A DNA stretch of 64,000 nucleotides from Candidatus Lloydbacteria bacterium RIFCSPHIGHO2_02_FULL_50_18 (GCA_001821395.1 MHLM01000012.1:1-64000); one strand, 5' to 3'; counted from the stretch's first letter, positions 1,500 to 51,612 are shown. A program made the numbers and translations. Notes: generated by a model not told the origin, from the sequence alone.

Positions 1500-1511
1500 A
1501 TGTTGATGAGA

Positions 1512-3089: not shown

Positions 3090-3095
3090 TCTGTA

Positions 3096-4895: not shown

Positions 4896-4900
4896 AGCGA

Positions 4901-5548: not shown

Positions 5549-5562
5549 GCTGCAATTATAAC

Positions 5563-6009: not shown

Positions 6010-6105
6010 TATGGTTAGTTTACCTTTTTTTGTTTTAGGTGAACAGCGATCCGCCACTCACTGGGGAAGCACTAGCATTTCTTCCGCAAAGAGGCCTAGG
6101 AGTTT

Positions 6106-6750: not shown

Positions 6751-6753
6751 AGA

Positions 6754-9132: not shown

Positions 9133-9201
9133 GTTGTGGGAATATGTGTGGCGAGATGGCTAGAGCGTGTTTTTTCCTCTTACAATTACATTGCACATAA
9201 A

Positions 9202-10752
9202 TTATGGGAATGCCCAACCCGAATATCCGGTATCAAGTGCGTCCTGCTGGTTTGTATCCGTGACGACAACAGCTGTTGATTGTGAATTGAATTTCATTTC
9301 ATCATAGATCATAAGCATTGTTGCTTGAGACCAGTAGGAGGTGTCTTTTGAGACACCAAAATATCCGATATACATTGTATCGTAGAGCTCCTTCACGAGC
9401 TCATTCACTGCGTTCTTGCTCGTTTGGAGTGGAGTGGTGTCGAAATCATTGAGCCCTTCCTGAGCTATTTGTGCTGACTGGGCTTCTGCAGGGTTGCCCG
9501 CACCAGAGTCAAGTGTTTTTGTATCACGCACTTGCTGATTACCGCTTCCCGCAGAATCACCAACGCTCCGTTGTGCTTCTCCTGCCGGGGTGACGGCGAT
9601 TGAGTTTTGTTGCTCAAGACAGTAGGGGTCATCAGGACGACCCGAGCATTCTGTCACGCTTGAGAAGCCGCTGCTCATCATATCTTGTCTCTTTGCTTCC
9701 TCTTGGCGCGCCAGTCGTCCCTGTACGACCTGGTCCGCTAGCGTGCTTGCACCGAGAGGAGAATTTGCAGGATTGTTCAGCATTGCACTAAACGTGGAAA
9801 TTCCGTCAACGAGATTGGCGGGGTCGTTGAAATTTTCCATGAATTTTGATGAATCACCAGGATTAAGGTATGTCGAAAGAGAGGATCCAGTTATCGATTG
9901 TGTGTAATTGAATGGATCTTCTGTTGATGACCGAGCATTATTGGCCATGTTTGCCGCAGTATCGAGACGCCAATCAGGGAATACATCCCATGAGCCGACA
10001 GGGTTTCCGGACAGTGGGTCCGATGCCGCCTGATCAACCGCGTGTTCAAGCTGGCGTGCTTTAACGTTGTAAATACTCTGTGAAGCATTGGTGTTGTAGA
10101 CAGCAGAATTTGACACCATTCCATTGTCGACGACCTCGTTTCCCGCTTTTGCCCAGTTTATGTTGGCGGCCGACATCTTGTTCATCAGCTGGTTGTTGAG
10201 CTGCGCGGTCTGCGCATCGGTAATATAGCTTTTGAGCAGCTGATGTATCTGGAGTGAGAGTCCTAATTTTTGCCATTCCACCTGTTCCTCGAGGAGGCAT
10301 CGGAGTGAGTGGCTATAATTGACCTGGACATATGGACCGGTTTTTGTTGCTGCTGGCGGACCTGCCGGAACTCCAAGGGGAAGTGTTGATGACGCCGAGG
10401 CATCCTTCCATGGTGTTGAACTGCCGGTAGTATAAGCAAATGCGGCATTTGGAAACCCCTCCATGTTATCACCCCTAATACATGGACCCCCCGCTTGTGC
10501 CATTGTGAGATTGTTTGCGGTAATGAGGTTCCGCAGTGAATCGGGATTATTTTTGAGGACATCGTTCATGTCTTTTGCATAAGTATCGAATTTCGTTGCG
10601 TACGAATTGAAGTCCGATATCAGGGTGGCATCATTGACCGGCACATATTGCGCGCTTGCATCTATCGGAGCAAGAAGGAGGACAAAAAATAATAGCATCA
10701 TCGTAAAAAAAACGTTGATGCTGTTCTCAATATTCATTATCTTATTGTACAT
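9202..10752 (-). CDS. hypothetical secreted protein
   Basis: 516 aa with signal peptide (FFTMMLLFFVLLLAPIDASA) and an Asn/Gln/Ser-rich mature region. Confidence 0.55.
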   Translation of the reverse strand: MYNKIMNIENSINVFFTMMLLFFVLLLAPIDASAQYVPVNDATLISDFNSYATKFDTYAKDMNDVLKNNPDSLRNLITANNLTMAQAGGPCIRGDNMEGFPNAAFAYTTGSSTPWKDASASSTLPLGVPAGPPAATKTGPYVQVNYSHSLRCLLEEQVEWQKLGLSLQIHQLLKSYITDAQTAQLNNQLMNKMSAANINWAKAGNEVVDNGMVSNSAVYNTNASQSIYNVKARQLEHAVDQAASDPLSGNPVGSWDVFPDWRLDTAANMANNARSSTEDPFNYTQSITGSSLSTYLNPGDSSKFMENFNDPANLVDGISTFSAMLNNPANSPLGASTLADQVVQGRLARQEEAKRQDMMSSGFSSVTECSGRPDDPYCLEQQNSIAVTPAGEAQRSVGDSAGSGNQQVRDTKTLDSGAGNPAEAQSAQIAQEGLNDFDTTPLQTSKNAVNELVKELYDTMYIGYFGVSKDTSYWSQATMLMIYDEMKFNSQSTAVVVTDTNQQDALDTGYSGWAFP

Positions 10753-10764
10753 GATTTTGGATAG

Positions 10765-11763
10765 TTATTGAATAGTCTGAACAGGTCCTGGCGTCTGCAT
10801 AAGGACTCGCGTGAATGGATACCCGGGTTCCCCCTCAGTGAAGACGATCCCGCTGGTCTTCAAAAATGAAACTACTTCACTGTATCCGGTGGTGACGTCA
10901 AGGCGAGTTTTTGTGTATGTTTGATATCCGGCTGCTCCATTGATCGGGTCAGAAAAAAGATGCTGCATACCAAGAAGGCCTCGCGACATACCGTCATAAC
11001 TATTCACAATAATGAGGTGTGACTGAGCTAGTCCTGAGGGGGTTTTTAATGCGCGCAGGTCAAGAGAAAATTTTTGATACACGATCGTGAGTAGCTGTAA
11101 TTCCTTGAGGGTTTCATCATCTTTTGTTTTTAGTCCATCAGCAAGTATCTCCTCTTCCGTGCGGAGGTGCGTAGAAGTGTATTTGTTGATGAGCTCACCG
11201 AAGGCGTTACCATAGGAACGCAGTGCCTCGGGACTATTGTCTCCGATGATATTGAGATCAGCGAGCTCATTCGCGGGTTTATATTTCTCCGGATTGAAAC
11301 CTTTGATAAGGTCGCGATAGGTTGTTTCACGGACCTCCTTACCTTGTAGTGCAAGAAACTTTGCATAGAATTCCTTTCGTTTTCCCTCTATGTCGGTCGT
11401 AGATGTTGCAAAATTGGGGTCTTGCATGATGGCAAGCTTGTCATCAGGTCCTGCCTTCACCGGGTTTCTGCCTTGTGCGACCTCTGCCCCATCGAGAGTG
11501 CCATCCCCATCTGTATCAGGGTTATGCGAATCGCTCCCATAAAGGCCTTCCTCCCAGTCAAGAAGACCATCATCGTCGGAATCTCGCGTGTCAATATTAT
11601 TTGCGTTGTTTAGACCCTGTTCAACAAGCTCTTGCGCATCGCTGCTGATTTGGGGTGCGCGGTTCACAAAAAAACCTACACCAACAATGGTAAGCGCGAC
11701 GAGGCTGCTGATCACAAGATTTTTGTGCGGTGAATGCAAAAAGTCCATAAGATTTCTCAACAA
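10765..11763 (-). CDS. membrane-anchored protein with Asp-rich calcium-binding (thrombospondin type-3-like) repeats
   Basis: TM anchor (LVISSLVALTIVGVGFFV) followed by DSDDDGLLDWEEGLYGSDSHNPDTDGDGTLDGAE, a DxDxDG-type motif. Confidence 0.55.
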   Translation of the reverse strand: MLRNLMDFLHSPHKNLVISSLVALTIVGVGFFVNRAPQISSDAQELVEQGLNNANNIDTRDSDDDGLLDWEEGLYGSDSHNPDTDGDGTLDGAEVAQGRNPVKAGPDDKLAIMQDPNFATSTTDIEGKRKEFYAKFLALQGKEVRETTYRDLIKGFNPEKYKPANELADLNIIGDNSPEALRSYGNAFGELINKYTSTHLRTEEEILADGLKTKDDETLKELQLLTIVYQKFSLDLRALKTPSGLAQSHLIIVNSYDGMSRGLLGMQHLFSDPINGAAGYQTYTKTRLDVTTGYSEVVSFLKTSGIVFTEGEPGYPFTRVLMQTPGPVQTIQ

Positions 11764-11897
11764 AAGAATGCTCCACTATTGTATCAATAATAGAATAAGA
11801 ACGGGTGAGAATATATATATGTGTGTGGATAACTGACGCTCGAGTAATCGATATTTCTGAATACAAAAAAGCGGAGCATGGTGCTCCGCATTCTCTC

Positions 11898-19631: not shown

Positions 19632-21188
19632 TCATGCAAATAATCTTTTTGGGCGATACTGCAACGCCTCGAGGATGTGTGCTTCCTTGATGTGGCGTGA
19701 TTCATCGATGTCGGCGATGGTTCGCGCAAGTTTGATGATGCGATGGTATGCGCGCGGTGAGAGGTCGAGGCGTTTTGCGCTCTCATTCAATAGTGTGATG
19801 ACGCTCTCGTCGAGCTTGATGAATTGGTCGATCGCATGAACGCTCATTTTTGCATTTTGTGTGACCGTGGAGCCGGCGAATCGTTTTGCTTGATGTGCGC
19901 GAGCGCGAGCGATGTCTGATTGGAGTTGCTCTATTTCCTTGTTGTCGTTTTTTCTTTTTCCCGGTGCTAATGTGTCGTGTGCAATTCGCGGGACCTCGAT
20001 CCAAAGATCGATCCGGTCGATGATCGGGCCGGATATCTTGCGTTGGTAGCGTTGAATAGCACCCGGTACGCACACGCAGGGTTTTTTGGTGTCCCCCCAA
20101 TACCCACACGGGCAAGGATTCATCGCCGCGATAAGGATGAATTCCGCAGGAAAATGTTCCGAACCTTTCGCGCGAGATACGTGCACGTAACCCTCTTCGA
20201 GCGGTTGGCGCAGTGATTCGATGACGCGCTTATCAAACTCAGGGAACTCGTCGAGAAAAAGCACACCACGATGCGCAAGTGTCACTTCACCCGGCTTTGG
20301 AATAGCACCGCCTCCGATGATGGAGACATAGGATGAGGTGTGATGCGGTGCGCGCATGGGCGAAGTCACGATGATCTCACTCGTGAGTGCCCCCGCAACG
20401 GAGTGGATCGCGGTGACCTCCAGTGCTTCTTTTTCAGAAAGTGGCGGTAAGAGTTCGGTGAATGCTTTTGCGAGCATGGTCTTTCCTGTGCCGGGAGGTC
20501 CCCAGAGGGCAATGTTGTGTCCGCCTGCGGCGGCGATCATGAGTCCACGCTTCGCACCTTCTTGCCCGCGAATATCGCTCCATGATCGATGTACTATTCG
20601 TGAAAGTGGTGTGTCGAGTGGCGTGGCTTCTTGCGGAGTGATGCGTTCATGCGCCGCCCCGCCTTTGAGGTCTGGTGTGAGGTGCGCGATCACTTGCTTC
20701 AATGAGGTGACAGGATAAACAGTGATACCGGAGACGAGTGCCGCCTCGCGCGCATTTTCTTTGGGCACGAAGACCTCCGTCATTCCAAGATTCTTTGCCG
20801 CACTCGCGATCGCAAGCGCCCCTCTGATCGCACGCACGTCGCCATTGAGCGCAAGTTCCCCTGCGAACGACCTGTTTTCCGTGGCGAAGCGGCAGTCTTC
20901 CGTTGCAAGGAGATAACAGAGCGCGATCGGTAGATCAAAAGACGGTCCTTCTTTTTTGAGTGAGGCGGGTGCGAGGGCAACCGTGATCTTTTGGTTGCGC
21001 TGTTTTGGTGATTTGTATCCGCTATTTTTAATTGCGGCACTGACGCGGTCGCGTGATTCTTCGACGGCCTTGTCGGGAAGTCCTACGATTGTAAAGGCGT
21101 GAATACCTTTCGTAAGATCAGCCTCAATCGTGATACGATGTCCGCCGGAAAGCGTCGGTTGGATGGAATACAGTTTTGCAAATGCCAT
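19632..21188 (-). CDS. comM: Mg-chelatase-like AAA+ ATPase ComM/YifB family
   Basis: MAFAKLYSIQPTLSGGHRITIEADLTKGIHAFTIVGLPD is a ComM N-terminus. Walker A GPPGTGKTMLAKA, Walker B VLFLDEFPEF, and a Cys-rich zinc motif NPCPCGYWGDTKKPCVC. Confidence 0.85.
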   Translation of the reverse strand: MAFAKLYSIQPTLSGGHRITIEADLTKGIHAFTIVGLPDKAVEESRDRVSAAIKNSGYKSPKQRNQKITVALAPASLKKEGPSFDLPIALCYLLATEDCRFATENRSFAGELALNGDVRAIRGALAIASAAKNLGMTEVFVPKENAREAALVSGITVYPVTSLKQVIAHLTPDLKGGAAHERITPQEATPLDTPLSRIVHRSWSDIRGQEGAKRGLMIAAAGGHNIALWGPPGTGKTMLAKAFTELLPPLSEKEALEVTAIHSVAGALTSEIIVTSPMRAPHHTSSYVSIIGGGAIPKPGEVTLAHRGVLFLDEFPEFDKRVIESLRQPLEEGYVHVSRAKGSEHFPAEFILIAAMNPCPCGYWGDTKKPCVCVPGAIQRYQRKISGPIIDRIDLWIEVPRIAHDTLAPGKRKNDNKEIEQLQSDIARARAHQAKRFAGSTVTQNAKMSVHAIDQFIKLDESVITLLNESAKRLDLSPRAYHRIIKLARTIADIDESRHIKEAHILEALQYRPKRLFA

Positions 21189-21199
21189 GATGCGTCGGG

Positions 21200-21559
21200 T
21201 TATTCCATGTGTGCGATGCACGTGGTTGCTGCGGGATTTGCCAGCAGCCGGGATTCTTCGATGTCCATATTGCAAACGACACAACTTCCGTAGGTGCCTG
21301 CGTCGATCGCGGTGAGTGCGGCGTTGACTTCGTTCCATCTTTTTTCGAGTTCAAATTCGACCGCGCTGCGATCTTCAAAGTTAGTGATCTCACCCGCCCT
21401 TTCCTCCTCTTCGGCAGTATCGAGATTCAGGTCTGCCGCAACGGGTTCCCAGTCCGCGAGATTGTCCGGATTAATGCGCCCAACCTTCTGTAATTCTTGA
21501 ACAAGTATTGCTTTCTCTTCTTCGAGTTTTTGTTTTAATTGTGCGAATTGTGTTCCCAT
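21200..21559 (-). CDS. DksA/TraR-family C4 zinc-finger protein
   Basis: C-terminal YGSCVVCNMDIEESRLLANPAATTCIAHME (CxxC-17-C) preceded by a coiled-coil N-terminus. Confidence 0.65.
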   Translation of the reverse strand: MGTQFAQLKQKLEEEKAILVQELQKVGRINPDNLADWEPVAADLNLDTAEEEERAGEITNFEDRSAVEFELEKRWNEVNAALTAIDAGTYGSCVVCNMDIEESRLLANPAATTCIAHME

Positions 21560-29851: not shown

Positions 29852-31339
29852 CTACTTCACTCCATATTTCTTGCGTATGGCACTCACCTCACCTTTTTCC
29901 TCCGCTTCTTTTTTCTCCTTACCCGCTTCTCCGAGTTGCTCAAGCTCCCTTCTCGGAAGCGTGTAGAGTGCTATCGCTCGTTGTTTAAGATAGTCAGCCG
30001 TGTTCTTTTCGGGATTATCAAGCACTTCATTGAAGAGTGCATGAAGTATCCATCCTATTTCCCGCCCCGGCTTCAAGTTGGCTGCGCTCATTATTCCCGC
30101 ACCATCGATTTTCAGCATACCCACCGATACCGGTGCACGCATTGCTTCCTCGATCATTGAATGATATTTGCGTAGTCGATAGGGGGTTTCTTTCGGACGC
30201 CCCATTCCGATACGGTCGCAGGCACGCACGTTCATGAGATCCCACACAAGTTCGGGTCCCACATGCGCAACGATGCGTCGTACTGCAGAGAGCGTAATCT
30301 TCTCAATATCGGAAAAAAATAAATGATAACGCACTAGCGTCGAGACGTCATGAATGAATTGCTTCGGAAAACGCAAGCGTTCAAGAATTTTTGCCGCCAT
30401 GCGCCCTCCGACGACATCGTGCCCGTAGAACGTCCAATCTTTCTTTTCGTCCGACCACTTACGCGTGTGGGGCTTCCCAACATCATGGAGTAACGCCGCG
30501 ATGCGCACGTGGAGCGGCCATCCCCTTTCTTTTGCATGCTGCAGAGCGCGCAGGTTATGTTCCCACACTTCATAGATGTGGTCGCCATTTTGCTCGCATC
30601 CAATGCCTGCCTCGAGTTCCGGTGCGATATATTTGAGTACCCCCGTTCTATTGAGCAGAACGATACCCTCCATGGGGCGATCCGACATGATGATCTTGAT
30701 GAACTCGTCACGAATGCGTTCCCCCGCGATGTGTTCAAGTCGGTGCGTAAATTTTACGACCGCATCCATGGTCTCTTTCTCGATGGCAAAGCCGAGCTCT
30801 GCGCCAAAGCGCACCGCGCGCAGTATGCGCAACGCGTCCTCGTGAAAACGATCTTCCGGCGCACCTACGGTTTTTATCAAATGGCGTTCGATGTCTTCTT
30901 CCCCTCCGTAGGGATCGATGATCATTCCTTGTGAAACATTGTACGCGATAGCATTCATGGTGAAATCGCGACGCTGTAGATCATCAGTAAGACTGCCGGA
31001 GAATGCAATCTCATCAGGATGGCGAAAGTTTGAATAGGCGCTTTCTTTGCGATATGGGGTCACTTCGACGATGCGCATGCTTCCCCGCTCCGCATCGTCT
31101 TCTGCGATGTCTTCATTGACGACGCCCACTGTTCCGTAATCATTCTCATAAAATGTTTTTGGGAAAAGTGCGATGATCTCTTCCGGCTTCGCGTTCGTTG
31201 TGACATCCCAATCCTTTGGCTTGACCCCTCGGTAAAGATCACGAACGCAACCACCTACGAGATATGCTTCATAGCCGGCTGCTTCGAGCGTTTTATTGAC
31301 CTGTGATATTTCGGGTGGAATAGTAAAGTGTTTCTGCAT
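29852..31339 (-). CDS. cca: CCA-adding tRNA nucleotidyltransferase with HD domain
   Basis: LVGGCVRDLYRGVKPKDWDVTT polymerase-beta-like head. HD motif LLHDVGKP. 495 aa. Confidence 0.85.
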   Translation of the reverse strand: MQKHFTIPPEISQVNKTLEAAGYEAYLVGGCVRDLYRGVKPKDWDVTTNAKPEEIIALFPKTFYENDYGTVGVVNEDIAEDDAERGSMRIVEVTPYRKESAYSNFRHPDEIAFSGSLTDDLQRRDFTMNAIAYNVSQGMIIDPYGGEEDIERHLIKTVGAPEDRFHEDALRILRAVRFGAELGFAIEKETMDAVVKFTHRLEHIAGERIRDEFIKIIMSDRPMEGIVLLNRTGVLKYIAPELEAGIGCEQNGDHIYEVWEHNLRALQHAKERGWPLHVRIAALLHDVGKPHTRKWSDEKKDWTFYGHDVVGGRMAAKILERLRFPKQFIHDVSTLVRYHLFFSDIEKITLSAVRRIVAHVGPELVWDLMNVRACDRIGMGRPKETPYRLRKYHSMIEEAMRAPVSVGMLKIDGAGIMSAANLKPGREIGWILHALFNEVLDNPEKNTADYLKQRAIALYTLPRRELEQLGEAGKEKKEAEEKGEVSAIRKKYGVK

Positions 31340-31389
31340 GACTCTATTATATAGGATTCACAATTATTGGAATGGTTGGATTCACGAAA

Positions 31390-31503
31390 GAAATATTCGC
31401 CAGGAATTTCGACCCCTACTGGGTCAGTACCTCATTCCCATTTTTCAGATTAAGAAATCTTCAAAAACATGGTAATGGGCTTCGAATCCTGTCGAAGCTG
31501 AAG
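31390..31503 (-). repeat. tRNA-3'-associated structured element (Arg copy) plus degenerate duplicate of the tRNA-Arg 3' end
   Basis: Read on the minus strand: GGATTCGAAGCCC...TTTTTGAAGATTTCTTAATCTGAAAAATGGGAATGAGGTACTGACCCAGTAGGGGTCGAAATTCCTGGCG. It is homologous to the elements at 32048-32150 and 35191-35302. Confidence 0.5.
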
Positions 31504-31543
31504 CAGTTCAGCTTCTCGGGAGCACAACTCGCTTCGCTCTTTG

Positions 31544-31615
31544 TGCTCCCGCCAGGATTCGAACCTGGAATAACTGCTTCGAAGGCAGTCGTGATATCCA
31601 TTTCACTACGAGAGC
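31544..31615 (-). tRNA. tRNA-Arg (anticodon TCG)
   Basis: Manual cloverleaf: acceptor GCTCTCG/CGGGAGC, D-stem GTGA/TCAC, anticodon stem ACTGC/GCAGT with loop CTTCGAA, T-arm CCAGG-TTCGAAT-CCTGG. Confidence 0.85.
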
Positions 31616-31731
31616 GTACTTTGTATTAAAGCAGATGATCAATGATAAAGCACGGCCAATAGAGATGAAGCGCTTGAAGGATGTATCCCTGTTTGCCATT
31701 TTCGTGTGAATTCGTTAGTATTGGTCCACAA

Positions 31732-31805
31732 GCGGGTATGGTTTAGTGGTAGAATACGTCCTTGCCAAGGATGAGACGGGAGTTCGATTCTCCCTACCCG
31801 CACCA
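31732..31805 (+). tRNA. tRNA-Gly (anticodon GCC), CCA encoded
   Basis: Acceptor GCGGGTA/TACCCGC, anticodon loop TTGCCAA, T-arm GGGAG-TTCGATT-CTCCC, 3' ACCA. Confidence 0.9.
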
Positions 31806-31828
31806 GGGTTGAGTGAAGCGGAAGTTAG

Positions 31829-31888
31829 CAAATCGTGAAATAGCAAAAATAACGAGATATCTCGTTATTTTTGCTATTTCACGATTTG
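31829..31888. repeat. 60-bp perfect palindrome immediately downstream of tRNA-Gly
   Basis: CAAATCGTGAAATAGCAAAAATAACGAGAT|ATCTCGTTATTTTTGCTATTTCACGATTTG has exact dyad symmetry. Confidence 0.7.
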
Positions 31889-32047
31889 TAACGATTTCCA
31901 TTTCCGAAAATCGCCGTGCGAGGAAAACTCTGCTTACCCGCATTAATTTTGCACTGTGCATGGTTTAAGGAAAGAAATCGTTCCGCCTCACTCAACTCTG
32001 TTGTTTCATATGCAAGCCTGTTTGGAAGTGTTTTGCCCCACTTCCGT

Positions 32048-32150
32048 GGGAGAATCGAAGCCTTTTCCCTTATTTTTGAAGGATTCATATCCTGAAAAAA
32101 TGGGAAATGGGCACTGAAACTGTAAGTTTCGATTCTCCCTACCCGCACTA
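32048..32150 (+). repeat. tRNA-3'-associated structured element (Gly copy) followed by a duplicate of the tRNA-Gly 3' end (att-like)
   Basis: GGGAGAATCGAAGCC...TTTTTGAAGGATTCATATCCTGAAAAAATGGGAAATGGGCACTGAAACTGTAAG, then TTTCGATTCTCCCTACCCGCACTA (compare the tRNA 3' end TTCGATTCTCCCTACCCGCACCA). Confidence 0.55.
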
Positions 32151-32310
32151 GGAACGAGCGTGATAAAAGGCCCTTCATAGGGCTTTTTATCACCGAGTGA
32201 CGACGTGCGGGAGGCTTTGCCTACGCGCACTAGGATGAACAACGAGCGTGATAAAAGGCCCTTCATAGGGCTTTTTATCACCGAGTGACGACGTGCGGGA
32301 GGCTTTGCCT
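32144..32310. repeat. tandem direct repeat (2 units of about 85 bp), each unit carrying a bidirectional terminator-like hairpin
   Basis: The unit CGCACTAGGA(TGAAC)AACGAGCGTGATAAAAGGCCCTTCATAGGGCTTTTTATCACCGAGTGACGACGTGCGGGAGGCTTTGCCTAC occurs twice. The hairpin is AAAAGGCCC-TTCAT-AGGGCTTTTT. Confidence 0.6.
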
Positions 32311-32496
32311 ACTCAGCAGTCATTTTTGATCAACTTGAGCTTTTGGTGTGCTGCTCACAAAGAATATACGTTTTTTATGAAATACAGGTAAATGCAAAGC
32401 ATTTTCTCCTTAAAAAATTAAACGTCGGCAATAAAATATTTTTTCTGAAATTCGTCAATAATTCCTAAAATATGTGATTTTAAGCATTTTTTGAAC

Positions 32497-32544
32497 TTAT
32501 CCACACCTGCTGTGCATAAAAACTGTGGATAAGTCTGTGGAAAG
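32497..32544. promoter_or_regulatory. cluster of DnaA boxes (three matches to TTATNCACA plus one 7/9) beside an AT-rich tract
   Basis: TTATCCACA at 32497-32505. TGTGCATAA at 32511-32519 and TGTGGATAA at 32524-32532 are reverse-complement boxes. TGTGGAAAG sits at 32536-32544. The stretch 32380-32490 is highly AT-rich. Confidence 0.5.
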
Positions 32545-32706
32545 TGGGTATAAAGGACATTATAATGACTTTTATTATGTCCTTTAGGAATTTGATTGAG
32601 GGCGGCGTTGTGCCGTTTCACGGAAAGCAAAGAATTAATGTTACTACGTAACAAATTAAGCAACAGTACAATATATCTGACTTGAATAACGTAAATTGGG
32701 TTTCAC

Positions 32707-33126
32707 ATGAAACTGAATAGTGAGAAACTTGAAAAAATGGGACAAATTACTGAAAAACAGCAAATAGGGAGGACCGGAGAGGATATTGCATGCTTGTTTC
32801 TCGTGAAACGTGGCTTTCAAATCGTTGAGCGTAATTTTTGGAAGAAGGTCGGTGAAATAGATATTATTTGCACAAAAGAGGAAAAATTTTACTTTGTTGA
32901 AGTAAAAACGATCGTAAAAAGAGGTGTTTCACGTGAAATGAGCGATAATTATCGTCCAGAAGATAATCTGCATGCTCAAAAGATCGTTCGACTTGGAAGA
33001 GCAATTGATATTTACCTTGAAGAGCAAAATATTGATGGTGATTGGGAAATACTTGGGGTCATGATAATTATTGACCCAAAGACTAAGATTGCAAAAGTGT
33101 CGCTTTTGGAAAATTTCGCCTGGTAG
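32707..33126 (+). CDS. YraN/UPF0102-family endonuclease
   Basis: GEDIACLFLVKRGFQIVERNFW...GEIDIICTKEEKFYFVEVKT matches the YraN signature. Confidence 0.7.
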   Translation: MKLNSEKLEKMGQITEKQQIGRTGEDIACLFLVKRGFQIVERNFWKKVGEIDIICTKEEKFYFVEVKTIVKRGVSREMSDNYRPEDNLHAQKIVRLGRAIDIYLEEQNIDGDWEILGVMIIIDPKTKIAKVSLLENFAW

Positions 33127-33403
33127 TCTTTTCACGTGAAACATAATGAACGAGAAGGATGACGGACCCAGGTCATAAGGTCGTTTTGTCTATTATGGGT
33201 GTTTCACGTGAAATCCTGCCTCAAATCTGTCTTGATCATCGCTTTGTTTTTGCGGTTTTATGTTTAGTGAAAGATAACTACAAAGTATAAATGAGCATAG
33301 CGCTGCTTGGGGATTACTCTTGAATTTTTTATGAGTATAATATGGAAAAGACAATCTTTATGAACAGGTTGCGTAGTTTAAAATTCTATGATATAATATT
33401 TCC

Positions 33404-33688
33404 ATGACTGATTCAAAACGCACCGAGTTGACACTGCATGCGATCGAGATCATTCACGGATCTCGTCTTTCAAGCGACGAGAAGATGATGCTTGAGGGGA
33501 GAATCCCGTTTATCTCTGATTCCATGCTTGAAATGTTTGTGCAGGTTTGCGATGAAGATCCGTTCGGCGTTGATGCAATCGTTAAAAATCTAAAGAAGAA
33601 ACTTGATGCAGGAGGGAATTTAAAACGATTGCATGAGATCGTAAAACAGGAGCGCAGGGAAATCGAAGATTCATTAGTCCTAGGATAA
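33404..33688 (+). CDS. hypothetical small protein
   Basis: 94-aa ORF, helical and charged, no motif. Confidence 0.45.
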   Translation: MTDSKRTELTLHAIEIIHGSRLSSDEKMMLEGRIPFISDSMLEMFVQVCDEDPFGVDAIVKNLKKKLDAGGNLKRLHEIVKQERREIEDSLVLG

Positions 33689-33698
33689 TAAATTTTAT

Positions 33699-34835
33699 AT
33701 GAGCGAGAAAATTCAGCAACAGGCAGAAGACGGAGAGGTGCAGCAAATTTCTTCCTTGACTGACATTGATTCAAGCACTAGGACGACAAGCACCGAGGAA
33801 GGTGATGGCGTTGTCACGGGTGATATCGGTACATCAGAAACGGTTTTTCCGCAGTTTGGTACCGTCGGAGATGTGGGAGAAACCTATGAATTGACGAGTA
33901 ATTTTTCCGAACTCGGTGATCCGATGCAAACTCTGGAACGATCACAACTACTTTGGGATGCACTTGCGCCGGAGGTTGTTGATCGACTCCTCGCAGATTC
34001 TCCGTTTAGCAGCGAGGAATTTTTGGCACTACCTGATGCAGATAAGAATGCCGCGCTTAATATCGTTGAAGATAGCGCAGTCGCTGCTGCCATGGCGCAG
34101 GAAGCCCCATCCGCCCGTGTCGCAGTGGTTTCATCAGAACTTACCCTAGCTGACGATCAGTCGATCGCGGCGAAGTCGATGAGGTGGGGTCGGTCTCTCG
34201 GTGCCGCATTAATAGTGGGGCTTGGCGCAACCCTTGCGCCGGGTGTTGCAAGTGCCGGTGGTCATGATGATAATATTTTCAAGTCATTTGGAGATAGCAT
34301 CGTGCATGGAGTTAAAAGAGATGTGCGTGAGGCGGGGAGAGATAGCGGCGCGGTGTTGGGAGGGGTTGTGCGCATCATCATCGATCGTTCGGTAAATCAG
34401 ACAGCAGTGCAAATACTTGGAGCGGCCGGAGTGCCGGCACAGCAGGCCCCGGAGGAAGTTGTTGTTGTGCCGAGAAGTGTTCCTGGCGCGTATGGCGGCG
34501 GATACGGAGGTCAATACGAAGTACGCGGACGGAGTGCCGGCGAATACGAAGCGCATGGATACGGCGGTCGCGGAATGGAGAGCAGTGAGCGTATTCGCAT
34601 AAAACAGGATATTAACCGTCTCGTGTCACAAGAGAGGGCACTCACAATTCAGGCGGAAAATTCACGGAGAACGGTAATGCAAACTTACGCTCAGTTGAGC
34701 GGGAGCAGAAATGACCTGAGTCTTCGGGCAAGATATGATGCAGAGCGGAGCCAGTACGAATATACCGTGGGAATGATTAGGACTCTCCGGGGTCAGATCG
34801 GCGACCTGAGCGGTAGACTCAGTCAGACGCCATAA
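33699..34835 (+). CDS. hypothetical protein, acidic N-terminal part, Gly/Tyr-rich segment and coiled-coil C-terminus
   Basis: 378 aa containing GAYGGGYGGQYEVRGRSAGEYEAHGYGGRG low-complexity and C-terminal heptad-like repeats. Confidence 0.5.
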   Translation: MSEKIQQQAEDGEVQQISSLTDIDSSTRTTSTEEGDGVVTGDIGTSETVFPQFGTVGDVGETYELTSNFSELGDPMQTLERSQLLWDALAPEVVDRLLADSPFSSEEFLALPDADKNAALNIVEDSAVAAAMAQEAPSARVAVVSSELTLADDQSIAAKSMRWGRSLGAALIVGLGATLAPGVASAGGHDDNIFKSFGDSIVHGVKRDVREAGRDSGAVLGGVVRIIIDRSVNQTAVQILGAAGVPAQQAPEEVVVVPRSVPGAYGGGYGGQYEVRGRSAGEYEAHGYGGRGMESSERIRIKQDINRLVSQERALTIQAENSRRTVMQTYAQLSGSRNDLSLRARYDAERSQYEYTVGMIRTLRGQIGDLSGRLSQTP

Positions 34836-34946
34836 GGTGTTGATCAGCGTCTGGTGAAAAACATCCCATATTCGATGGGGTGTTTTTATTATCGCAAACG
34901 AGATAGTTGCCCTAATTTGAATTTTAAGCTACTCTTGCGACACGAC

Positions 34947-34983
34947 CGAAGTATATCGGGGCGTGGTGTAATGGCTAACATGT
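34947..34983 (+). pseudogene. tRNA-Pro 5'-half pseudo-copy (degenerate duplicate upstream of the intact gene)
   Basis: CGGGGCGTGGTGTAATGGCTAACATGTCTGGTTTT is near-identical to the 5' half of tRNA-Pro at 35047. The anticodon loop is disrupted (TTTTCAGGATAGAGA) and the T-arm is missing. Confidence 0.5.
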
Positions 34984-35046
34984 CTGGTTTTCAGGATAGA
35001 GACCAGATGACAAGAGACAGCGTGACGTAGTGAGGAAGAAGTATAT

Positions 35047-35119
35047 CGGGGCGTGGTGTAACGGCTAACATGTCTGGTTTGGGACCAGATGACTCCGGGT
35101 TCGAATCCCGGCGCCCCGA
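35047..35119 (+). tRNA. tRNA-Pro (anticodon TGG)
   Basis: Acceptor CGGGGCG/CGCCCCG, anticodon stem TCTGG/CCAGA with loop TTTGGGA, T-arm CCGGG-TTCGAAT-CCCGG. Confidence 0.9.
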
Positions 35120-35163
35120 CTAAATAAAGAAAAGACCTTCAAGGAGGTCTTTTCTTTATTTAG
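35120..35163 (+). terminator. long AT-rich hairpin immediately 3' of tRNA-Pro
   Basis: CTAAATAAAGAAAAGACC-loop-GGTCTTTTCTTTATTTAG perfect 18-bp inverted repeat. Confidence 0.45.
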
Positions 35164-35190
35164 TCGAAGGCGCGAGGAGCACAGCTCCGA

Positions 35191-35302
35191 GAGGGATTCG
35201 AAGCCCTTCTCCCATATTTATGAAGGATTCTTATCCTGAGTAAATGGGAAAGGGGTACTGACGCAGTAGGCGTCGAAATTCCCGGCGCCCCGACTAAATA
35301 AA
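35191..35302 (+). repeat. tRNA-3'-associated structured element (Pro copy) followed by an exact duplicate of the tRNA-Pro 3' end plus 11 nt (att-like)
   Basis: GAGGGATTCGAAGCCCTTCTCCCATATTTATGAAGGATTCTTATCCTGAGTAAATGGGAAAGGGGTACTGACGCAGTAGGCG, then TCGAAATTCCCGGCGCCCCGACTAAATAAA. Confidence 0.55.
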
Positions 35303-35476
35303 AAAACTGCCTTTTGGCGGTTTTTTTATTAAATCTTCAAGATTGAAAATCACCTGCGGCGGTAAGGGTAGATCTCAGTTTTCAATGACTGAGAAGGCGT
35401 CATCGATAAAAAGTGTTTCACGTGGAACACCTGCGAGCTCGCAATGAATAACTTCTCACGATAGAATGAGTTTCTT

Positions 35477-36058
35477 GTGAAGAATCCCGAATACGAAGAA
35501 GGTGGACATGATGAAAAAAAAGACCTATTCCTTTTTGAGTTGGACGGGGATCTTTACGCTGTACCCGTTGAACTCGTCGATCGAGTAATGAAAATACCTC
35601 CGATCACTCCGATCCCCAATGCGCCGGCGGCAATTGTTGGTATCTTCCACTTGCGCGGAAAGGTCGTTTTGACCCTCGACCTCTCAAGTCGTATGGGTAT
35701 TTCCAGAATGAAGCCCTTAAGTCAAAACTTTCTTTTTGTCGTGCGGTATAAAAATGATCAGTTCGCCATTTTGATCGATACACCTAAGGTCATTGTACAC
35801 ATCCCAGCGAGCGAAATTCATCGTCCCGACTCCATTCTTACGGCCCGATTATCACCGCAATATGTCCAGGGAACCTTCATGTTTCAGGAGGTAACAAAAG
35901 TGAAAGTCCCTAATCATTCGATCTTCATCGAGCATATTGGTGGGGTTGACCGGAGGCCTGAAGAAATTCCACCATCACTTCGACCGGTACTCCTCCTTGA
36001 CCTTGAGCGAGTCCTTGACCAGGAGGATCTTCAGCACATGTTTATTTCACAGGAGTAA
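35477..36058 (+). CDS. cheW: chemotaxis coupling protein CheW
   Basis: CheW-like domain LFLFELDGDLYAVPVELVDRVMKIPPITPIPNAPAAIVGIFHLRGKVVLTLDL. Confidence 0.8.
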   Translation: MKNPEYEEGGHDEKKDLFLFELDGDLYAVPVELVDRVMKIPPITPIPNAPAAIVGIFHLRGKVVLTLDLSSRMGISRMKPLSQNFLFVVRYKNDQFAILIDTPKVIVHIPASEIHRPDSILTARLSPQYVQGTFMFQEVTKVKVPNHSIFIEHIGGVDRRPEEIPPSLRPVLLLDLERVLDQEDLQHMFISQE

Positions 36059-36079
36059 AGTCTATGGTACAATTTTAGT

Positions 36080-36442
36080 ATGGCAAAGGATATAAAAATA
36101 CTTCTTGTTGATGACTCAGCTTTTATGCGTAAGGTATTGCGTGACATCTTTGAAAGTGCCGGATATACGAATTTCATAGAGGCGGGAAATGGAACAGAAG
36201 CGATCCAAAAATTCAGAACAGAGAAGCCCGATTTTATCTTTCTTGATATCATCATGCCTGACGTGAACGGTATGGATGTACTTCGTGAGATCGGGAGCGA
36301 AGCGAAGGTCATCGTCGTATCGGCGGTTGGACAAAAGGATGTGATCGAGCAGGCAAAAACACTTGGTGCACTCGATTACATCGTAAAGCCTTTTGATCGT
36401 GATCAGGTGCTCGAAAAGGCCCAGCGGCATTTCGGTCAGTAA
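36080..36442 (+). CDS. cheY: chemotaxis response regulator CheY
   Basis: 120-aa single REC domain KILLVDDSAFMRKVL...DFIFLDIIMPDVNGMDVL...KP with the phospho-acceptor Asp. Confidence 0.85.
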   Translation: MAKDIKILLVDDSAFMRKVLRDIFESAGYTNFIEAGNGTEAIQKFRTEKPDFIFLDIIMPDVNGMDVLREIGSEAKVIVVSAVGQKDVIEQAKTLGALDYIVKPFDRDQVLEKAQRHFGQ

Positions 36443-36456
36443 GTAGCCCGACACGC

Positions 36457-37566
36457 TTGGTCAAATGTTTCATGAATAGTCAACCAACCGAAAAGATCCG
36501 TGTACTTATTGCAGATGATTCTTTTTTTATACGCACCTATCTTCAGGAGGTATTGAAAGCAAGTGAATCGATCGAAGTCGTTGGGCTTGCTTCATCGGGA
36601 ATCGAAGTAGTTGAGTTGGCACGTAAATTAAAACCCCATGTGATCACGATGGATTATCACATGCCGGGAAAAAATGGAATTGAAGCAACCGCAGAGATTA
36701 TGCGTGATGATCACCCGCTTCCGGCAATCATCATGCTTTCTGCTTTCGAGGGGGATGATGGCGAACATGTTCGAAAGACCCTTTTGTCCACCGGTGCCCA
36801 TGTGATCGAAAAACCGTCGGGAGAAGTGTCTCTTGATATAGAAAAGATTGCACGCACTATCGTACAACGGATCGAGGAGGTCGGGTGGACCGAAGTACGC
36901 ATGCGACACTCCTTTGCCCGCATGAAACACACTAGGGAACGAAGCCTAAATGGGCAGGATCGCACACTGCCATTTTCGGGGGTTGTCGTGATCGGTGCGT
37001 CTACCGGTGGGCCATCCTTGGTTGAAGGTTTGATCAAGTCGTTTGATCAGTATCACGGAATTTCGATCGTGATAGTTCAGCACATGTCTGCATATTTTAC
37101 TTCGCTGTTTGCTGAGCGGCTCGGACACGTTACCTCATTCCGTGTTTATGAAGCAAAGAGCGGAGACGTTCTTCTTCCGAACGATGCCCTCGTTGTCCCC
37201 GGTGGTTCTTTTTTGTTACCTACTTCGCTACCGGGTTCCCCGATGTGCAGCTTTGATATTATCGAAAGTGAAACTCATGCACCGGAGGCGCAGATCGACA
37301 ATTCGATGCGCGCGATAGCCGCTTGTTACCAGGGACCAATCGCCGGCGTATTACTTTCCGGAATGGGAAATGACGGAGCCGTCGGACTGCACGCACTGCG
37401 ATTGCGTGGAGGACTTTGTCTTGCGCAGGATCCGGAAACAGCACCGGTGCGTTCTATGCCGGCGCATGCGATTGATAGCGGTGAGGCAGTCGGAGTGCGG
37501 ATAGAGGATATCCCCGAACGTATCATGAGTCATTTTCGTCGACCATCACCGTCACGGCTTGCGTGA
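36457..37566 (+). CDS. cheB: chemotaxis protein-glutamate methylesterase CheB (REC + CheB_methylest)
   Basis: N-terminal REC (IRVLIADDSFFIR). C-terminal VVVIGASTGGPSLVEGLI, HMSAYFT and a GMGNDGAVG-like catalytic region. Confidence 0.85.
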   Translation: MVKCFMNSQPTEKIRVLIADDSFFIRTYLQEVLKASESIEVVGLASSGIEVVELARKLKPHVITMDYHMPGKNGIEATAEIMRDDHPLPAIIMLSAFEGDDGEHVRKTLLSTGAHVIEKPSGEVSLDIEKIARTIVQRIEEVGWTEVRMRHSFARMKHTRERSLNGQDRTLPFSGVVVIGASTGGPSLVEGLIKSFDQYHGISIVIVQHMSAYFTSLFAERLGHVTSFRVYEAKSGDVLLPNDALVVPGGSFLLPTSLPGSPMCSFDIIESETHAPEAQIDNSMRAIAACYQGPIAGVLLSGMGNDGAVGLHALRLRGGLCLAQDPETAPVRSMPAHAIDSGEAVGVRIEDIPERIMSHFRRPSPSRLA

Positions 37567-39250
37567 TATAATCAACCATATGCCGTTGAACATGAATAAG
37601 TATAAGGATCTCTTCTGCGCGGAAGCAGAGGAGCAGCTTGCAATACTCTCTCGTTTATTGCTTGTGCTTGAGAAATCAACAAACCACATGGAATACCATG
37701 AGGAGTTAATGCGCAGCGCACACACCATCAAGGGTGCCGCTGCGACAATGGGGTATGCTTCAATGGCAGAACTTGCTCATGCGGTTGAAGATATTTTTCA
37801 TGCAGCCGAGCGGGGTGCCCTTGTGGTTGATACACGGATCATTACACTATTGCTCTCAGCGATCGACCTCATGACGCATTCACTCGCCTCGATCAAGAGT
37901 AGTGACGTTGAACTTCCCAGTAAGGAAGTTGTTGATAAATTGAAAAAAATTCTTGAAGAAAATGCCGGTGTACAGACCGTTGTTCCGCAAGAAAAAACCG
38001 GTACTGATGTTCAGCAATTGCATATCGTCACTCCGGATACCATCAAGGTTAGTGTCGAAAAACTCGATACATTAATGGGGCTATTTGAGGAAATGTTGAT
38101 GCTCAGACTGAAGGCAAATTCAATGATCGAGCCTGCTGTGGAATTTGTTCGGACGACGACTGACCCTGTATTGAAGCAGCAATTATTCTTCATTGCCGAG
38201 CTCGAGGCATTGTTTGCAGAACTTGCGCGGCTCATGACTGAGCATCAAGACGCTCTTCTTGCTATTCGCCTCGTTCCCCTTGAACAGATCTTCGGCCAGT
38301 TCCCTCGTATGGTGAGGGATCTGTCGGTGCGAGAAGAAAAAGCGATCGAATTTTTTGTTGAAGGTGGAGATATCGCCTTAGACCGTACCGTGATCGAGGG
38401 CCTTGGCGGTGCACTAGCGCATCTTCTTCGCAATGCGGTCGACCACGGGATCGTTTCACGTGGAACAATATCTCTTTCGGCGGTAAGGGAAAAGGGACGC
38501 GTACGGATCTTTGTGGAGGATTCGGGCGCCGGGATCGATTATGGGCGGGTCAAAGAGGTGGCAACGGCTCAAGGGGTAGGCACGAGTGAAGAGATCGCAC
38601 TTATGGGAAACGAACAGCTCGCAGAATTATTGTTTCATCAAAATATGTCGACCAACAAAGTGGTGACGGATATTTCGGGAAGAGGAGTTGGTCTTGCTGC
38701 GGTGCGCGGGTTTGCTGAGGATGTCGGAGGACGCGTTGAAGTCATTTCTCCCATTCCGGAAATAGGGAAGGGGACCCGCTTTGTTCTTGATCTTCCGATC
38801 TCTCTTGCAACAGTGCGCGTGCTCGTCGTGCAAGCACGAGGGTACACATTTGCGATACCTTTCGATCATGTCATTAAAACACTTCACTTTGAAACGCGGG
38901 AGGTCGGTGACGCGGCGCATCAGGAAACACTTTTTCTCGACGGGACATTGTTGCCGCTGATGCATCTCGATAAAATTCTCAAACTATCATACGGTTCCGC
39001 TCCATCTCCGGAACATTCTCGAACCGCGGTGTTGATCCGAACGGGAGAGAAAACATTTCTTCTCGAAGTAGATGCGTGCACGGGTGAACAAGACCTATTG
39101 ATCAAATCGCTTCCTCCGGTTCTCCGTAATAATAAGGGATTTTCAGGCTCAGCGCTTCTCCCGGACGGACGAACAATATTATTACTCGATGGCCATGGTT
39201 TACTCATACAAGCAATAGACGATATACTGAACACCCAATCATTATCTTAA
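37559..39250 (+). CDS. cheA: chemotaxis histidine kinase CheA
   Basis: HPt motif HTIKGAAATMGY, HATPase_c HLLRNAVDHGI ... GRGVGLAAV, and a C-terminal CheW-like domain. Confidence 0.85.
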   Translation: MRDIINHMPLNMNKYKDLFCAEAEEQLAILSRLLLVLEKSTNHMEYHEELMRSAHTIKGAAATMGYASMAELAHAVEDIFHAAERGALVVDTRIITLLLSAIDLMTHSLASIKSSDVELPSKEVVDKLKKILEENAGVQTVVPQEKTGTDVQQLHIVTPDTIKVSVEKLDTLMGLFEEMLMLRLKANSMIEPAVEFVRTTTDPVLKQQLFFIAELEALFAELARLMTEHQDALLAIRLVPLEQIFGQFPRMVRDLSVREEKAIEFFVEGGDIALDRTVIEGLGGALAHLLRNAVDHGIVSRGTISLSAVREKGRVRIFVEDSGAGIDYGRVKEVATAQGVGTSEEIALMGNEQLAELLFHQNMSTNKVVTDISGRGVGLAAVRGFAEDVGGRVEVISPIPEIGKGTRFVLDLPISLATVRVLVVQARGYTFAIPFDHVIKTLHFETREVGDAAHQETLFLDGTLLPLMHLDKILKLSYGSAPSPEHSRTAVLIRTGEKTFLLEVDACTGEQDLLIKSLPPVLRNNKGFSGSALLPDGRTILLLDGHGLLIQAIDDILNTQSLS

Positions 39251-39255
39251 GTATT

Positions 39256-39921
39256 ATGCCATCACTATTTCAACTCACAGAAAATGATAATGACCAGTTA
39301 CGAGAACTTGTAAATATCGGAGTTTCGCATGCCGGAGACACGTTGTCTTTGATGATGGGGAAACATATCACGGTAAGTATTCCGGGGATATCCGTACAAA
39401 GCGCATCCACTACGCTCTGTTTGCCGCAAGGTGATGAGGATCTCACCGTCTCAGTGTTGCTCCGCGTATACGGGTTAATTAATGGATATGTCTTTTTGTT
39501 TTTTCCGCGCACTGCCGCTCTCCGCTTGCTGCAAGTACTTTCAGGAAAGAGTATCAGCGATGTGCGCGCACTCGATCGATTCGACCGGTCAATATTTCAA
39601 GAACTAGGAAACGTGATCACCGGCGGTACGTTGAACGGACTATCAAAATTTCTCCACATCGAGATGCTTCACTCCGTCCCCAACGTTGTCGTGGATATGA
39701 GTGGTGCAATATTCAATTCCTTATCAGCATCGATGGTGAAGCAGCACGAGGAATTTCTTTCTCTTGATGTTTCGATCTGCATCGATTCTCCATCGAGCTC
39801 TGCTGTGTGTGTTGATAGCGAGGCCTCCGCTGCGCGCATGTATCTTTTTATGGGACCGGATGCCGTGGAGAGGATCCTTGCGATCACCAATGCGATGATC
39901 GGCAAAAAAAATGACCTATGA
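39256..39921 (+). CDS. cheC: CheC-family CheY-P phosphatase
   Basis: Two CheC-type motifs (NIGVSHAGDTLSLMMG and ELGNVITGGTLNGLS). Confidence 0.65.
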   Translation: MPSLFQLTENDNDQLRELVNIGVSHAGDTLSLMMGKHITVSIPGISVQSASTTLCLPQGDEDLTVSVLLRVYGLINGYVFLFFPRTAALRLLQVLSGKSISDVRALDRFDRSIFQELGNVITGGTLNGLSKFLHIEMLHSVPNVVVDMSGAIFNSLSASMVKQHEEFLSLDVSICIDSPSSSAVCVDSEASAARMYLFMGPDAVERILAITNAMIGKKNDL

Positions 39922-40406
39922 GCAATACTATCGAAATACGGATTGCTGAGCTTTTTGTTGGTGATCAGTCGAATGTCATCATCACAAAGGGGGTCGGCTC
40001 ATGTATCGTGATCGTCCTCTATGATCGCCTCGTGCGCATCGGAGGGATGGCACATGCGATACTTCCAGAAGCGAGCATCGAGCATGCAGAGGTTGGTGTG
40101 CATGTGGATTTAGGAAAACGATTTGTGAAGTATGCGGATCTTGCAGTGGACACATTGATCGCTGATATGGAGTCATTGGGTGGAACACGGCAGCATCTTG
40201 TCGCAAAATTGATCGGAGGTGCGCATATGTTTGCGTTGCTTGAAGGTGATACGTTTGGTATCGGGTGGGAAAATACAGAAAGTGCACGCGCGCGATTGGT
40301 CCACCATGGAATACCGATTGAAACGGAGGTGGTAGGCGGAACGGTCGGTCGGAATGTACGTCTTGATTGTGCAACAGGCATCGTCGAGATTATCACGAAG
40401 GTTTAA
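39918..40406 (+). CDS. cheD: chemoreceptor glutamine deamidase CheD
   Basis: GVGSCIVIVLYDRLVRIGGMAHAILP matches the CheD catalytic Cys/His region. 4-nt overlap with cheC. Confidence 0.8.
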   Translation: MSNTIEIRIAELFVGDQSNVIITKGVGSCIVIVLYDRLVRIGGMAHAILPEASIEHAEVGVHVDLGKRFVKYADLAVDTLIADMESLGGTRQHLVAKLIGGAHMFALLEGDTFGIGWENTESARARLVHHGIPIETEVVGGTVGRNVRLDCATGIVEIITKV

Positions 40407-40454
40407 CCTGAAGGTATCCTCAGTCAACTCACGCTTCATTGAATTTTATCTATT

Positions 40455-40994
40455 TTGCTATACACTGGGCAAATGCTCATCCGTCGTAACCCACTAACCC
40501 TTTTGTCCTTTGTGCTGTTCGTTATTGCTCTCTACTCTGCGGGCATGCTTTCTTCTTCAGCTCGTGTTACACATGAAACAACGATCCCCGAAAACCTTTT
40601 TTCTGTGAAACAGGGTGTTACTCAGGATGGAACGGTGTCTATTTCCGAGGTTTCACGGGTTCCCGCCGTCCCGATCTTTCTAAAGAGTGCGAATCATCCA
40701 CGAACACTGCGAGCATTTGTCGGACCAAGTCAGGGTGACAAAGCATCACTTTTTATAGAGTCGGTACTACCGCGTGGCTATTTTGTTATTTCAGGAGGTT
40801 ATACTGTTTCACAAGATTTCCCGACACTTTTATGGAATAACGCAGTGACACTTCAGTTTTACGGAACAAAAGAGAACAACGAGCAGCTCTACCGTATTCG
40901 TCTTAACGTGCATGCACTTACGGTTGATGCTTTGCCCGTTGATCCGACAGCAACCAGTAGCGATCCGACGGGGTATCGTGTGACGCCGGATTAA
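40455..40994 (+). CDS. hypothetical membrane-anchored protein
   Basis: 179 aa with N-terminal TM LTLLSFVLFVIALYSAGML. Confidence 0.5.
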   Translation: MLYTGQMLIRRNPLTLLSFVLFVIALYSAGMLSSSARVTHETTIPENLFSVKQGVTQDGTVSISEVSRVPAVPIFLKSANHPRTLRAFVGPSQGDKASLFIESVLPRGYFVISGGYTVSQDFPTLLWNNAVTLQFYGTKENNEQLYRIRLNVHALTVDALPVDPTATSSDPTGYRVTPD

Positions 40995-51450: not shown

Positions 51451-51612
51451 AAAAAGTGTGGATAAATTAATACTAAAATTACTTTCTCCAGTATAGCAAA
51501 ACCCACACTTTTTGTGACGATACCGATCGCAACAGAGAAATTCAGCAAAATGAAAGCCATCCGACCACGCTTCTCCGCGGGGCATTCGCCTCCGCTGGTG
51601 TTCGGTAATAGT

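Follow-up and report, generated by a model that had tools for sequence, protein, structure and literature searches.

The window analysed here, a stretch of DNA 64,000 nt in length, contains a non-coding island (31340-32706) between two divergently oriented genes. On the left is cca (29852..31339, minus strand), which encodes the CCA-adding tRNA nucleotidyltransferase, and on the right is yraN (32707..33126, plus strand), which was assigned to the UPF0102 family of nucleases by Pfam PF02021 and by synteny; all of its matches to NCBIfam YraN-family models were below the curated cut-offs. Two tRNA genes are present in the island: tRNA-Arg (31543-31615, minus strand) and tRNA-Gly(GCC) (31732..31805, plus strand), the latter reading towards the DnaA-box module described below. 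Rfam searches of the island at gathering and permissive thresholds returned these two tRNAs only, and the candidate of a further RNA gene was dropped.

The 3' end of tRNA-Gly (31783-31807) is repeated at 32128-32152 and again at 32210-32234, and the repeats resemble att-site scars. An exact 72-nt repeat with a spacing of 88 bp occupies 32153-32312 and carries a terminator-like hairpin. Co-linearity between strains breaks inside this duplication (~32246-32295), which suggests that its copy number is variable. Directly after tRNA-Gly is a perfect 60-bp palindrome (31829-31888) with 30-nt arms and no spacer; when compared to Rfam, it gave sub-threshold chance matches only.

A cluster of DnaA boxes next to an AT-rich tract

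Perfect copies of the DnaA box TTATNCACA occur five times in the 64-kb window (1.62 expected). Three of the five fall at 32497-32553, where together with two 7/9 boxes they form a cluster. Four boxes of the cluster are on the minus strand. Box 1 (32545..32553; TTATACCCA, 7/9) reads TTATACACA in most relatives and abuts box 2 (32536..32544; CTTTCCACA, 7/9), which is usually aTGTCCACA in relatives. Box 3 (32524..32532), a perfect TTATCCACA separated from box 2 by 3 bp, varies least of all elements of the module. Box 4 (32511..32519; TTATGCACA, perfect TTATNCACA) is an extra tandem box found in some lineages only. Box 5 (32497..32505, plus strand), again a perfect TTATCCACA, is inverted relative to boxes 1-4 and converges with box 4 across 5 bp; inverted boxes like it are present in the closest relatives and are not class-wide. 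The Poisson expectation for the triple of perfect boxes within 36 bp is ~7e-7, and two boxes within 40 bp were seen in 0/300 first-order Markov simulations of the window.

On the strand on which the tandem boxes are read, an AT-rich tract (32357..32506) lies to their 3' side. Its segment 32380-32490 is 75.7% AT compared to a window mean of 51.6%, a value reached by 0.03% of all 111-bp windows (maximum 76.6%, starting at 32363). Only one other region of the window exceeds 74% AT.

What the original prediction had described at this position was recovered. It had listed four boxes within 48 bp, and these were confirmed by reading the sequence and by pattern search (32497-32544); the adjoining fifth box (TTATACCCA, 32545-32553, minus strand) had been missed. 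The highly AT-rich segment that it had placed beside the boxes does rank in the top 0.03% as given above, and its tRNA-bearing non-coding island was borne out as 31340-32706 with two tRNAs. It had also stated that the window lacks dnaA and dnaN, and gene and domain searches of the window found neither.

A 41-bp core is conserved across Paceibacteria

For comparison, we assembled 80 loci anchored on the cca gene. Proteins identical to those encoded in the window are found on metagenome contigs from the Rifle aquifer, and the nearest species-level relatives are Candidatus Lloydbacteria and other Paceibacteria/Parcubacteria MAGs. Across the 80 loci, boxes with at most 1 mismatch occur at 4-6x background in the 2 kb upstream of cca. 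A position-frequency profile built from 50 sequences (49 relatives and the window) delimits a conserved core of 41 bp (32519..32559, minus strand), which in the window reads TGTCCT-TTATACCCA(box 1)-CTTTCCACA(box 2)-gac-TTATCCACA(box 3)-GTTTT. The consensus of the profile is GTCyTTTATaCACAT.TCCACAGagTTATCCACAGTTtT, and outside the 41-bp core the 50-sequence profile contains no conservation at fixed position. Spacing within the core is fixed: box 1 abuts box 2 (or overlaps it by 1 base), and box 3 follows after 3 bp.

When the tandem pair was used as a search criterion, 55 matches were obtained in 51 of the 80 loci, all within 2.7 kb upstream of cca, and none (0 in 1,015 kb) elsewhere in the same loci. 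The cca identities of the 51 module-bearing loci are 54-85%. At the strain level, the 90-bp module is unchanged in 9 contigs. It is always located upstream of yraN, at 75-310 bp from the yraN 5' end, and its distance to cca is variable (187 to 2305 bp). In one locus (L056), the module and yraN are inverted together. A tRNA-like sequence lies beside the module in several relatives. The gene order around it is conserved class-wide as yraN(-), the module, cca(+), a second box site (see below), xth(-), xer(-), rpsO(+), a gene for a NYN-domain protein(+), pnp(+), h310(+), comM/yifB(+) and uvrD(+). Judged by this conservation, the cluster is functional DNA kept class-wide in Paceibacteria.

A partner motif and a second box site

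In front of the core there is always an inverted repeat of TAAAGGACA. In the window, this repeat (32551..32586) has the form TAAAGGACA-N18-TGTCCTTTA; its two arms are the only perfect TAAAGGACA copies in the window, and its right arm is overlapped by box 1 by 3 nt. The sequence of the arms is conserved and they are also found as direct copies; both points favour a protein-binding site over an RNA hairpin. In the relatives, AAGGACA is enriched at box sites. A genome-wide role for TAAAGGACA was considered and set aside, as the motif is not enriched in the window as a whole (12 copies at <=1 mismatch vs 11.85 expected).

The box-density profile of the relatives has a second peak just past the cca stop codon. 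This corresponds to a second site between the convergent ends of cca and xth (the exonuclease III gene), at +1500 to +2500 relative to the cca start (L051:11771, L049, L058 and L085 are examples). Here, a single perfect box is embedded in copies of the partner motif, AAAGACAtGTAAAGGACA-N3-4-TGTGGATAAc-N3-8-TGTCCTTTA, with AAGGACA directly flanking the lone box, and the site as a whole carries 3-6 copies of TAAAGGACA/TGTCCTTTA. The window has no second site of this kind; a NUDIX gene occupies its place.

parS-like sites are concentrated in and around yraN

We searched for 16-bp palindromes resembling the parS sequence tGTTtCAcGTGAAAca (consensus checked in PMC4368675). The window contains 8 such sites, compared to 0.42 expected, and 0/100 shuffles reached 8. 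All 8 are within 32699-40580. Five of them, starting at 32699, 32795, 32925, 33128 and 33200, make up the central part of the cluster, in and around yraN (32699..33215), and the remaining three are at 35414..35429 (TGTTTCACGTGGAACA, 1 mismatch), 38452..38467 (2 mismatches) and 40565..40580 (2 mismatches). Less than 200 bp separate the end of the DnaA boxes (32553) from the start of the first parS-like site (32699).

The same arrangement is seen in the relatives (L013-L092): parS-like sites gather at -3000 to +1500 relative to the cca start, the flanks having isolated, scattered hits only, and perfect 16/16 copies are present in L042, L046 (and its duplicate L048), L049, L050 and L077. In L097, L099, L101 and L102, the dnaA-bearing loci described below, no parS-like site was found within 10 kb of dnaA. 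Because the clustering is kept in relatives, we regard the locus as a conserved centromere cluster of the chromosome, and the parS cluster around yraN is probably the chromosomal centromere of these bacteria. The ParB signature GERRxRA was found neither in the window nor in any fetched locus, among which this genome is represented by ~85 kb, so that the ParB partner is assumed; searches of the window for ParA/ParB or other replication genes were likewise negative.

The origin is predicted in the dnaA-dnaN spacer

A 198-kb scaffold (L093) matches the window over 11,499 nt with 0 mismatches and is part of the same genome. Starting ~6 kb to the left of the window, it carries jag-yidC-yidD-rnpA(-) followed by dnaA(+) and dnaN(+). 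This canonical gene set for an origin region, rnpA and dnaA-dnaN, is at L093:17075-20305 (window about -5575 to -8805), ~38-40 kb from the box cluster. The dnaA-dnaN spacer contains about 5 boxes, namely TTATCCTCA, a 7/9 box, TCATCCACA, a perfect TTATCCACA and ATATCCACA. Between these and dnaN come GGCG and, directly in front of the gene, an AT-rich tract of 40 bp. DnaA proteins of close relatives (P0005, P0015, P0118 and P0120) were used as stand-ins for the DnaA of this genome.

GC skew at third codon positions (GC3 skew) changes sign at the dnaA/dnaN junction in four related lineages: from -0.172 +/- 0.029 on the left to +0.167 +/- 0.029 on the right in L099, from -0.066 +/- 0.030 to +0.078 +/- 0.029 in L097, from -0.18 +/- 0.03 to +0.24 +/- 0.03 in L101 and from -0.20 +/- 0.03 to +0.18 +/- 0.05 in L102. 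In 4/4 of these, dnaA has a negative skew of its own, and that of dnaN is zero or positive. The position of the sign change thus points to a canonical oriC in the dnaA-dnaN spacer. Within the window itself, the two sides of the box cluster have the same GC3 skew, +0.097 on the plus strand (side effect r = 0.006 +/- 0.018), and this uniformly positive skew predicts an origin to the left of the window. Of the features expected of oriC, the box site has the box cluster; a skew sign change and a flank of rpmH/rnpA, dnaA and dnaN are absent from it.

The original prediction had offered two possibilities for the cluster, a candidate oriC or a DnaA-controlled site. The first is rejected for this genome: the composition switch is at the dnaA-dnaN spacer, ~40 kb to the left, and the GC-skew comparison that had been proposed as a check gave no GC3 change across the cluster (the r value above), the sign switch being elsewhere. 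The second is supported, as the cluster is non-random and conserved in 51 loci. The concern that such boxes might be equally dense everywhere was not borne out by the counts, which are highly non-random at a place that is kept in the 51 related loci.

Genes in the left part of the window (1-31339) have ~81% of their coding bases on the minus strand, head-on to forks arriving from the dnaA-dnaN origin. The point from which gene orientation diverges is the box module and not oriC.

A probable non-origin DnaA-box cluster at the centromere

Our preferred reading, held with moderate confidence, is that the site is an origin-proximal, non-origin, conserved DnaA-box cluster at the parS centromere of a Candidatus Lloydbacteria-like (Paceibacteria, CPR) chromosome. 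Its exact role we infer from sequence and by analogy to characterized clusters. DnaA would bind the tandem boxes cooperatively through its domain IV, and a short head-to-tail DnaA oligomer would form beside a ParB-parS complex, while a putative factor would occupy the TAAAGGACA repeats that overlap box 1. Most likely, by comparison with such clusters, the site would hold DnaA near the origin and thereby tune its availability for oriC. By the same analogy, it may couple initiation to ParB/parS-dependent segregation, and control of yraN transcription is a possible secondary output. Several observations count against this reading. No parB gene was seen in the fetched DNA; the tandem boxes point into an AT-rich tract and in this respect also resemble an unwinding element; the divergent gene orientation at the module is not explained by it; the relatives have a local GC3-skew offset centred on the module; and a good promoter-like match in the window overlaps boxes 1/2, so that transcriptional control of yraN has some probability.

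In an alternative explanation, DnaA would act here as a transcription factor only, at a promoter or operator that serves yraN (or a divergent transcript), and the inverted repeat would be a second operator. As described above, the module keeps a distance of 75-310 bp to the yraN 5' end and has moved together with yraN in L056. In addition, the best sigma-70-like promoter match (32538..32566, plus strand; TGGAAA-17-TATAAT, 10/12) is directed towards yraN, with its -35 element in boxes 1/2 and its -10 element in the loop of the inverted repeat, and some DnaA-box clusters (DBCs) of Bacillus subtilis regulate neighbouring genes too (PMC3245932). However, neither this match nor any other sigma-70-like promoter keeps its position at the module in 48 relatives, so that a conserved promoter overlapping the boxes was rejected as a candidate. 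CPR promoters may differ from the sigma-70 consensus, and for this reason the negative promoter result is weak. The box and its partner motif recur at the second site, between convergent gene ends where there is no promoter, which argues for a role beyond promoter control, and, with parS sites inside yraN, linkage to the gene and linkage to the centromere are inseparable. We rate a role as promoter or operator alone as less likely than the preferred reading and, taken by itself, unlikely.

With appreciably less conviction, one can also entertain that the parS sites, the rigid three-box core and the TAAAGGACA repeats together constitute one composite Paceibacteria element that would couple initiation to segregation and that, in some lineages with the second site flanking cca, might even be a true, dnaA-detached bipartite or back-up origin. 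An origin function of such an element, even as a back-up, would explain why gene orientation diverges here and not at dnaA.

A related and slightly more doubtful possibility is that the site is an auxiliary, dormant or former origin that would once have been the firing site, or would still fire rarely or in some Paceibacteria lineages, and that would be bipartite around cca in the relatives. Its geometry is unwinding-like, with tandem boxes 3 bp apart that lead into the AT-rich tract and fit the tandem-box part of a basal unwinding system (BUS; see below), and the relatives have the second box site just past cca. Gene orientation diverges here, with the ~81% of coding bases head-on towards the dnaA origin already mentioned. 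When GC3 skew was evaluated per locus in the relatives, 11 had an origin-like sign change at the module, 14 (the closest relatives among them) had no change and 4 were positive on both sides; a terminus-like change was found in none (0) of the relatives examined in this way. In a regression of GC3 skew over 677 predicted genes, the side effect was 0.063 +/- 0.007 and orientation had no effect. Against an origin, the skew step is local. Within +/-5 kb of the module, the yraN side of the relatives is ~0.1 more negative and the cca side ~0.1 more positive than the lineage baseline, and this offset is present in all three groups, whether or not the baseline switches. In binned profiles, even the step of the "switch" group decays to about zero by 6-9 kb, and a step that fades over this distance is not a replichore boundary. 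In L051, dnaA with its own 4-box cluster is 9.5 kb from the module and skew is positive on both sides of the module. In the genome studied here, the skew between module and dnaA shows no sign of forks born at the module, and the second site is absent from the window. Because of the head-on gene bias and the local GC3 offset, we keep a small probability for an auxiliary or former origin.

That the site is the primary oriC, detached from dnaA and with DnaA opening the adjacent AT-rich tract, is very improbable. Such a reading could draw on five boxes that adjoin a stretch ranking among the most AT-rich of the window, on the genes that diverge from the box site, on the adjacent parS sites (normally origin-proximal) and on bulk GC skew, in which the yraN side is below the cca side in 35/35 relatives. 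Bulk skew, taken in the window and as a meta-profile over the relatives, did look origin-like. Yet the bulk skew contrast peaks over the two divergent genes and decays within 6-9 kb. Since it is confounded by the divergent gene orientation, bulk skew was discarded as a sign of an origin and replaced by the GC3 regression and the per-group profiles. There is no GC3 sign change at the module in this genome or in its closest relatives (L013, L015, L016 and L019), the sign change is at the dnaA-dnaN spacer in the four related lineages, and 40 kb away, this genome carries the rnpA, dnaA-dnaN set, which comes with boxes and an AT-rich tract of its own.

The weakest explanation, a mobile-element or plasmid-type origin remnant integrated at tRNA-Gly, would account for the tRNA-Gly 3'-end fragments at 32128-32152 and 32210-32234, the variable 88-bp tandem duplication and 60-bp perfect palindrome between tRNA and boxes, and the nearby gene for a Xer-type recombinase, but is scarcely credible given that the box module is outside the repeat-bounded segment, that it has the same chromosomal position and the same flanking genes in 51 loci with cca identities of 54-85%, and that the recombinase is itself part of the conserved synteny.

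Comparison with known DnaA-box clusters

In Escherichia coli, datA and DARS1/DARS2 are short, non-origin box clusters in which the arrangement of the boxes drives formation of a DnaA oligomer that changes DnaA activity. They depend on sites for IHF or Fis and on the cycle of ATP- and ADP-DnaA with Hda, and the DARS core mixes box orientations. The cluster in the window resembles the DARS core in that the tandem boxes 3 and 4 face the inverted box 5. Unlike in DARS, the inverted box is confined to the closest relatives and lies outside the class-wide core.

In B. subtilis, origin-proximal DBCs restrain initiation, in synergy with Spo0J, and are found upstream of different genes in different species (PMC3245932, Okumura et al. 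2012). Like these, the cluster described here has several consensus boxes, is intergenic, is located outside but near oriC and shares a chromosomal domain with parS sites; like some of them, it is beside a gene that it possibly also regulates. It differs from the B. subtilis DBCs in its rigid three-box core conserved across the class and in its fusion to the TAAAGGACA inverted repeat, less than 200 bp from the first parS site.

In the work of Mera, Kalogeraki and Shapiro (2014), as it is cited in PMC6667618, DnaA of Caulobacter crescentus binds the parS centromere, 8 kb from ori, and centromere movement that depends on both DnaA and ParA was demonstrated experimentally. The arrangement here is similar in that a DnaA-binding sequence is found in the parS region, near but apart from the origin, at ~40 kb compared to 8 kb. 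Unlike the experimental link in Caulobacter, the link here consists of juxtaposed motifs. Box architecture and partner motif also differ, and the host gene is yraN compared to the parAB region in Caulobacter.

A BUS is defined by one or more boxes, a spacer of at most 16 bp and at least three DnaA-trios of the form NAN (PMC8287927). The site resembles an oriC with BUS in its tandem boxes, at most 3 bp apart, beside an AT-rich tract. DnaA-trios were set aside as a criterion, since the NAN x3 pattern is too permissive in 75% AT DNA; in addition, the inverted box intervenes, unlike in an oriC with BUS. Further differences from such an origin are that the site is off the skew switch and away from dnaA/dnaN, and that a canonical candidate is present elsewhere in the genome, in the dnaA-dnaN spacer. 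In BUS predictions, the better box tends to be upstream, whereas here the stronger box is nearer to the AT-rich tract.

What sets this DnaA-box cluster apart from other non-origin clusters is the combination of a class-wide fixed architecture, fusion to the centromere and a partner motif. To our knowledge, replication control in CPR bacteria is essentially unstudied, as the organisms are mostly uncultured. The present analysis predicts a canonical oriC candidate in the dnaA-dnaN spacer, a chromosomal parS centromere located in and around yraN, a secondary DnaA-binding module that is conserved class-wide and joined to this centromere, and a 9-bp partner motif for a putative DNA-binding factor. 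If the module modulates DnaA or links DnaA to ParB, control of the type seen with DBCs and in Caulobacter would be ancient and widespread and would not be limited to model organisms. In practical terms, origin-finding pipelines that score box density together with AT-richness would wrongly annotate this site as the oriC of draft Paceibacteria genomes.

Further observations on the window and its surroundings

Perfect DnaA boxes also occur singly. One (11824-11832) is intergenic and upstream of a minus-strand gene (10765-11763), and another (51457-51465) is ~8 nt upstream of a probable ATG at 51449. In relatives, a lone perfect box, TGTGGATAAA (plus strand), is conserved between tyrS and ruvC, ~6 kb to the right of dnaN (L097:17423, L099:17490, L100:12562).

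A T4SS-like block (129-11763) encodes PrgI-like and TraC-like proteins, a TraG/VirB4-like ATPase, T4SS-pilin-like proteins and several orphans. It adjoins jag-yidC near the origin, and this synteny is seen in 5/5 lineages (L093, L097, L099, L101, L102).

YraN has been reported as the nuclease partner of the ComM helicase in the resolution of transformation D-loops (bioRxiv 10.1101/2024.02.06.579203). In the window, comM/yifB (19632-21338) and yraN (32707-33126) are 11 kb apart within the class-wide synteny, and genes for a uvrD-like helicase, for exonuclease III (xth) and for a xer-type recombinase are found alongside them.
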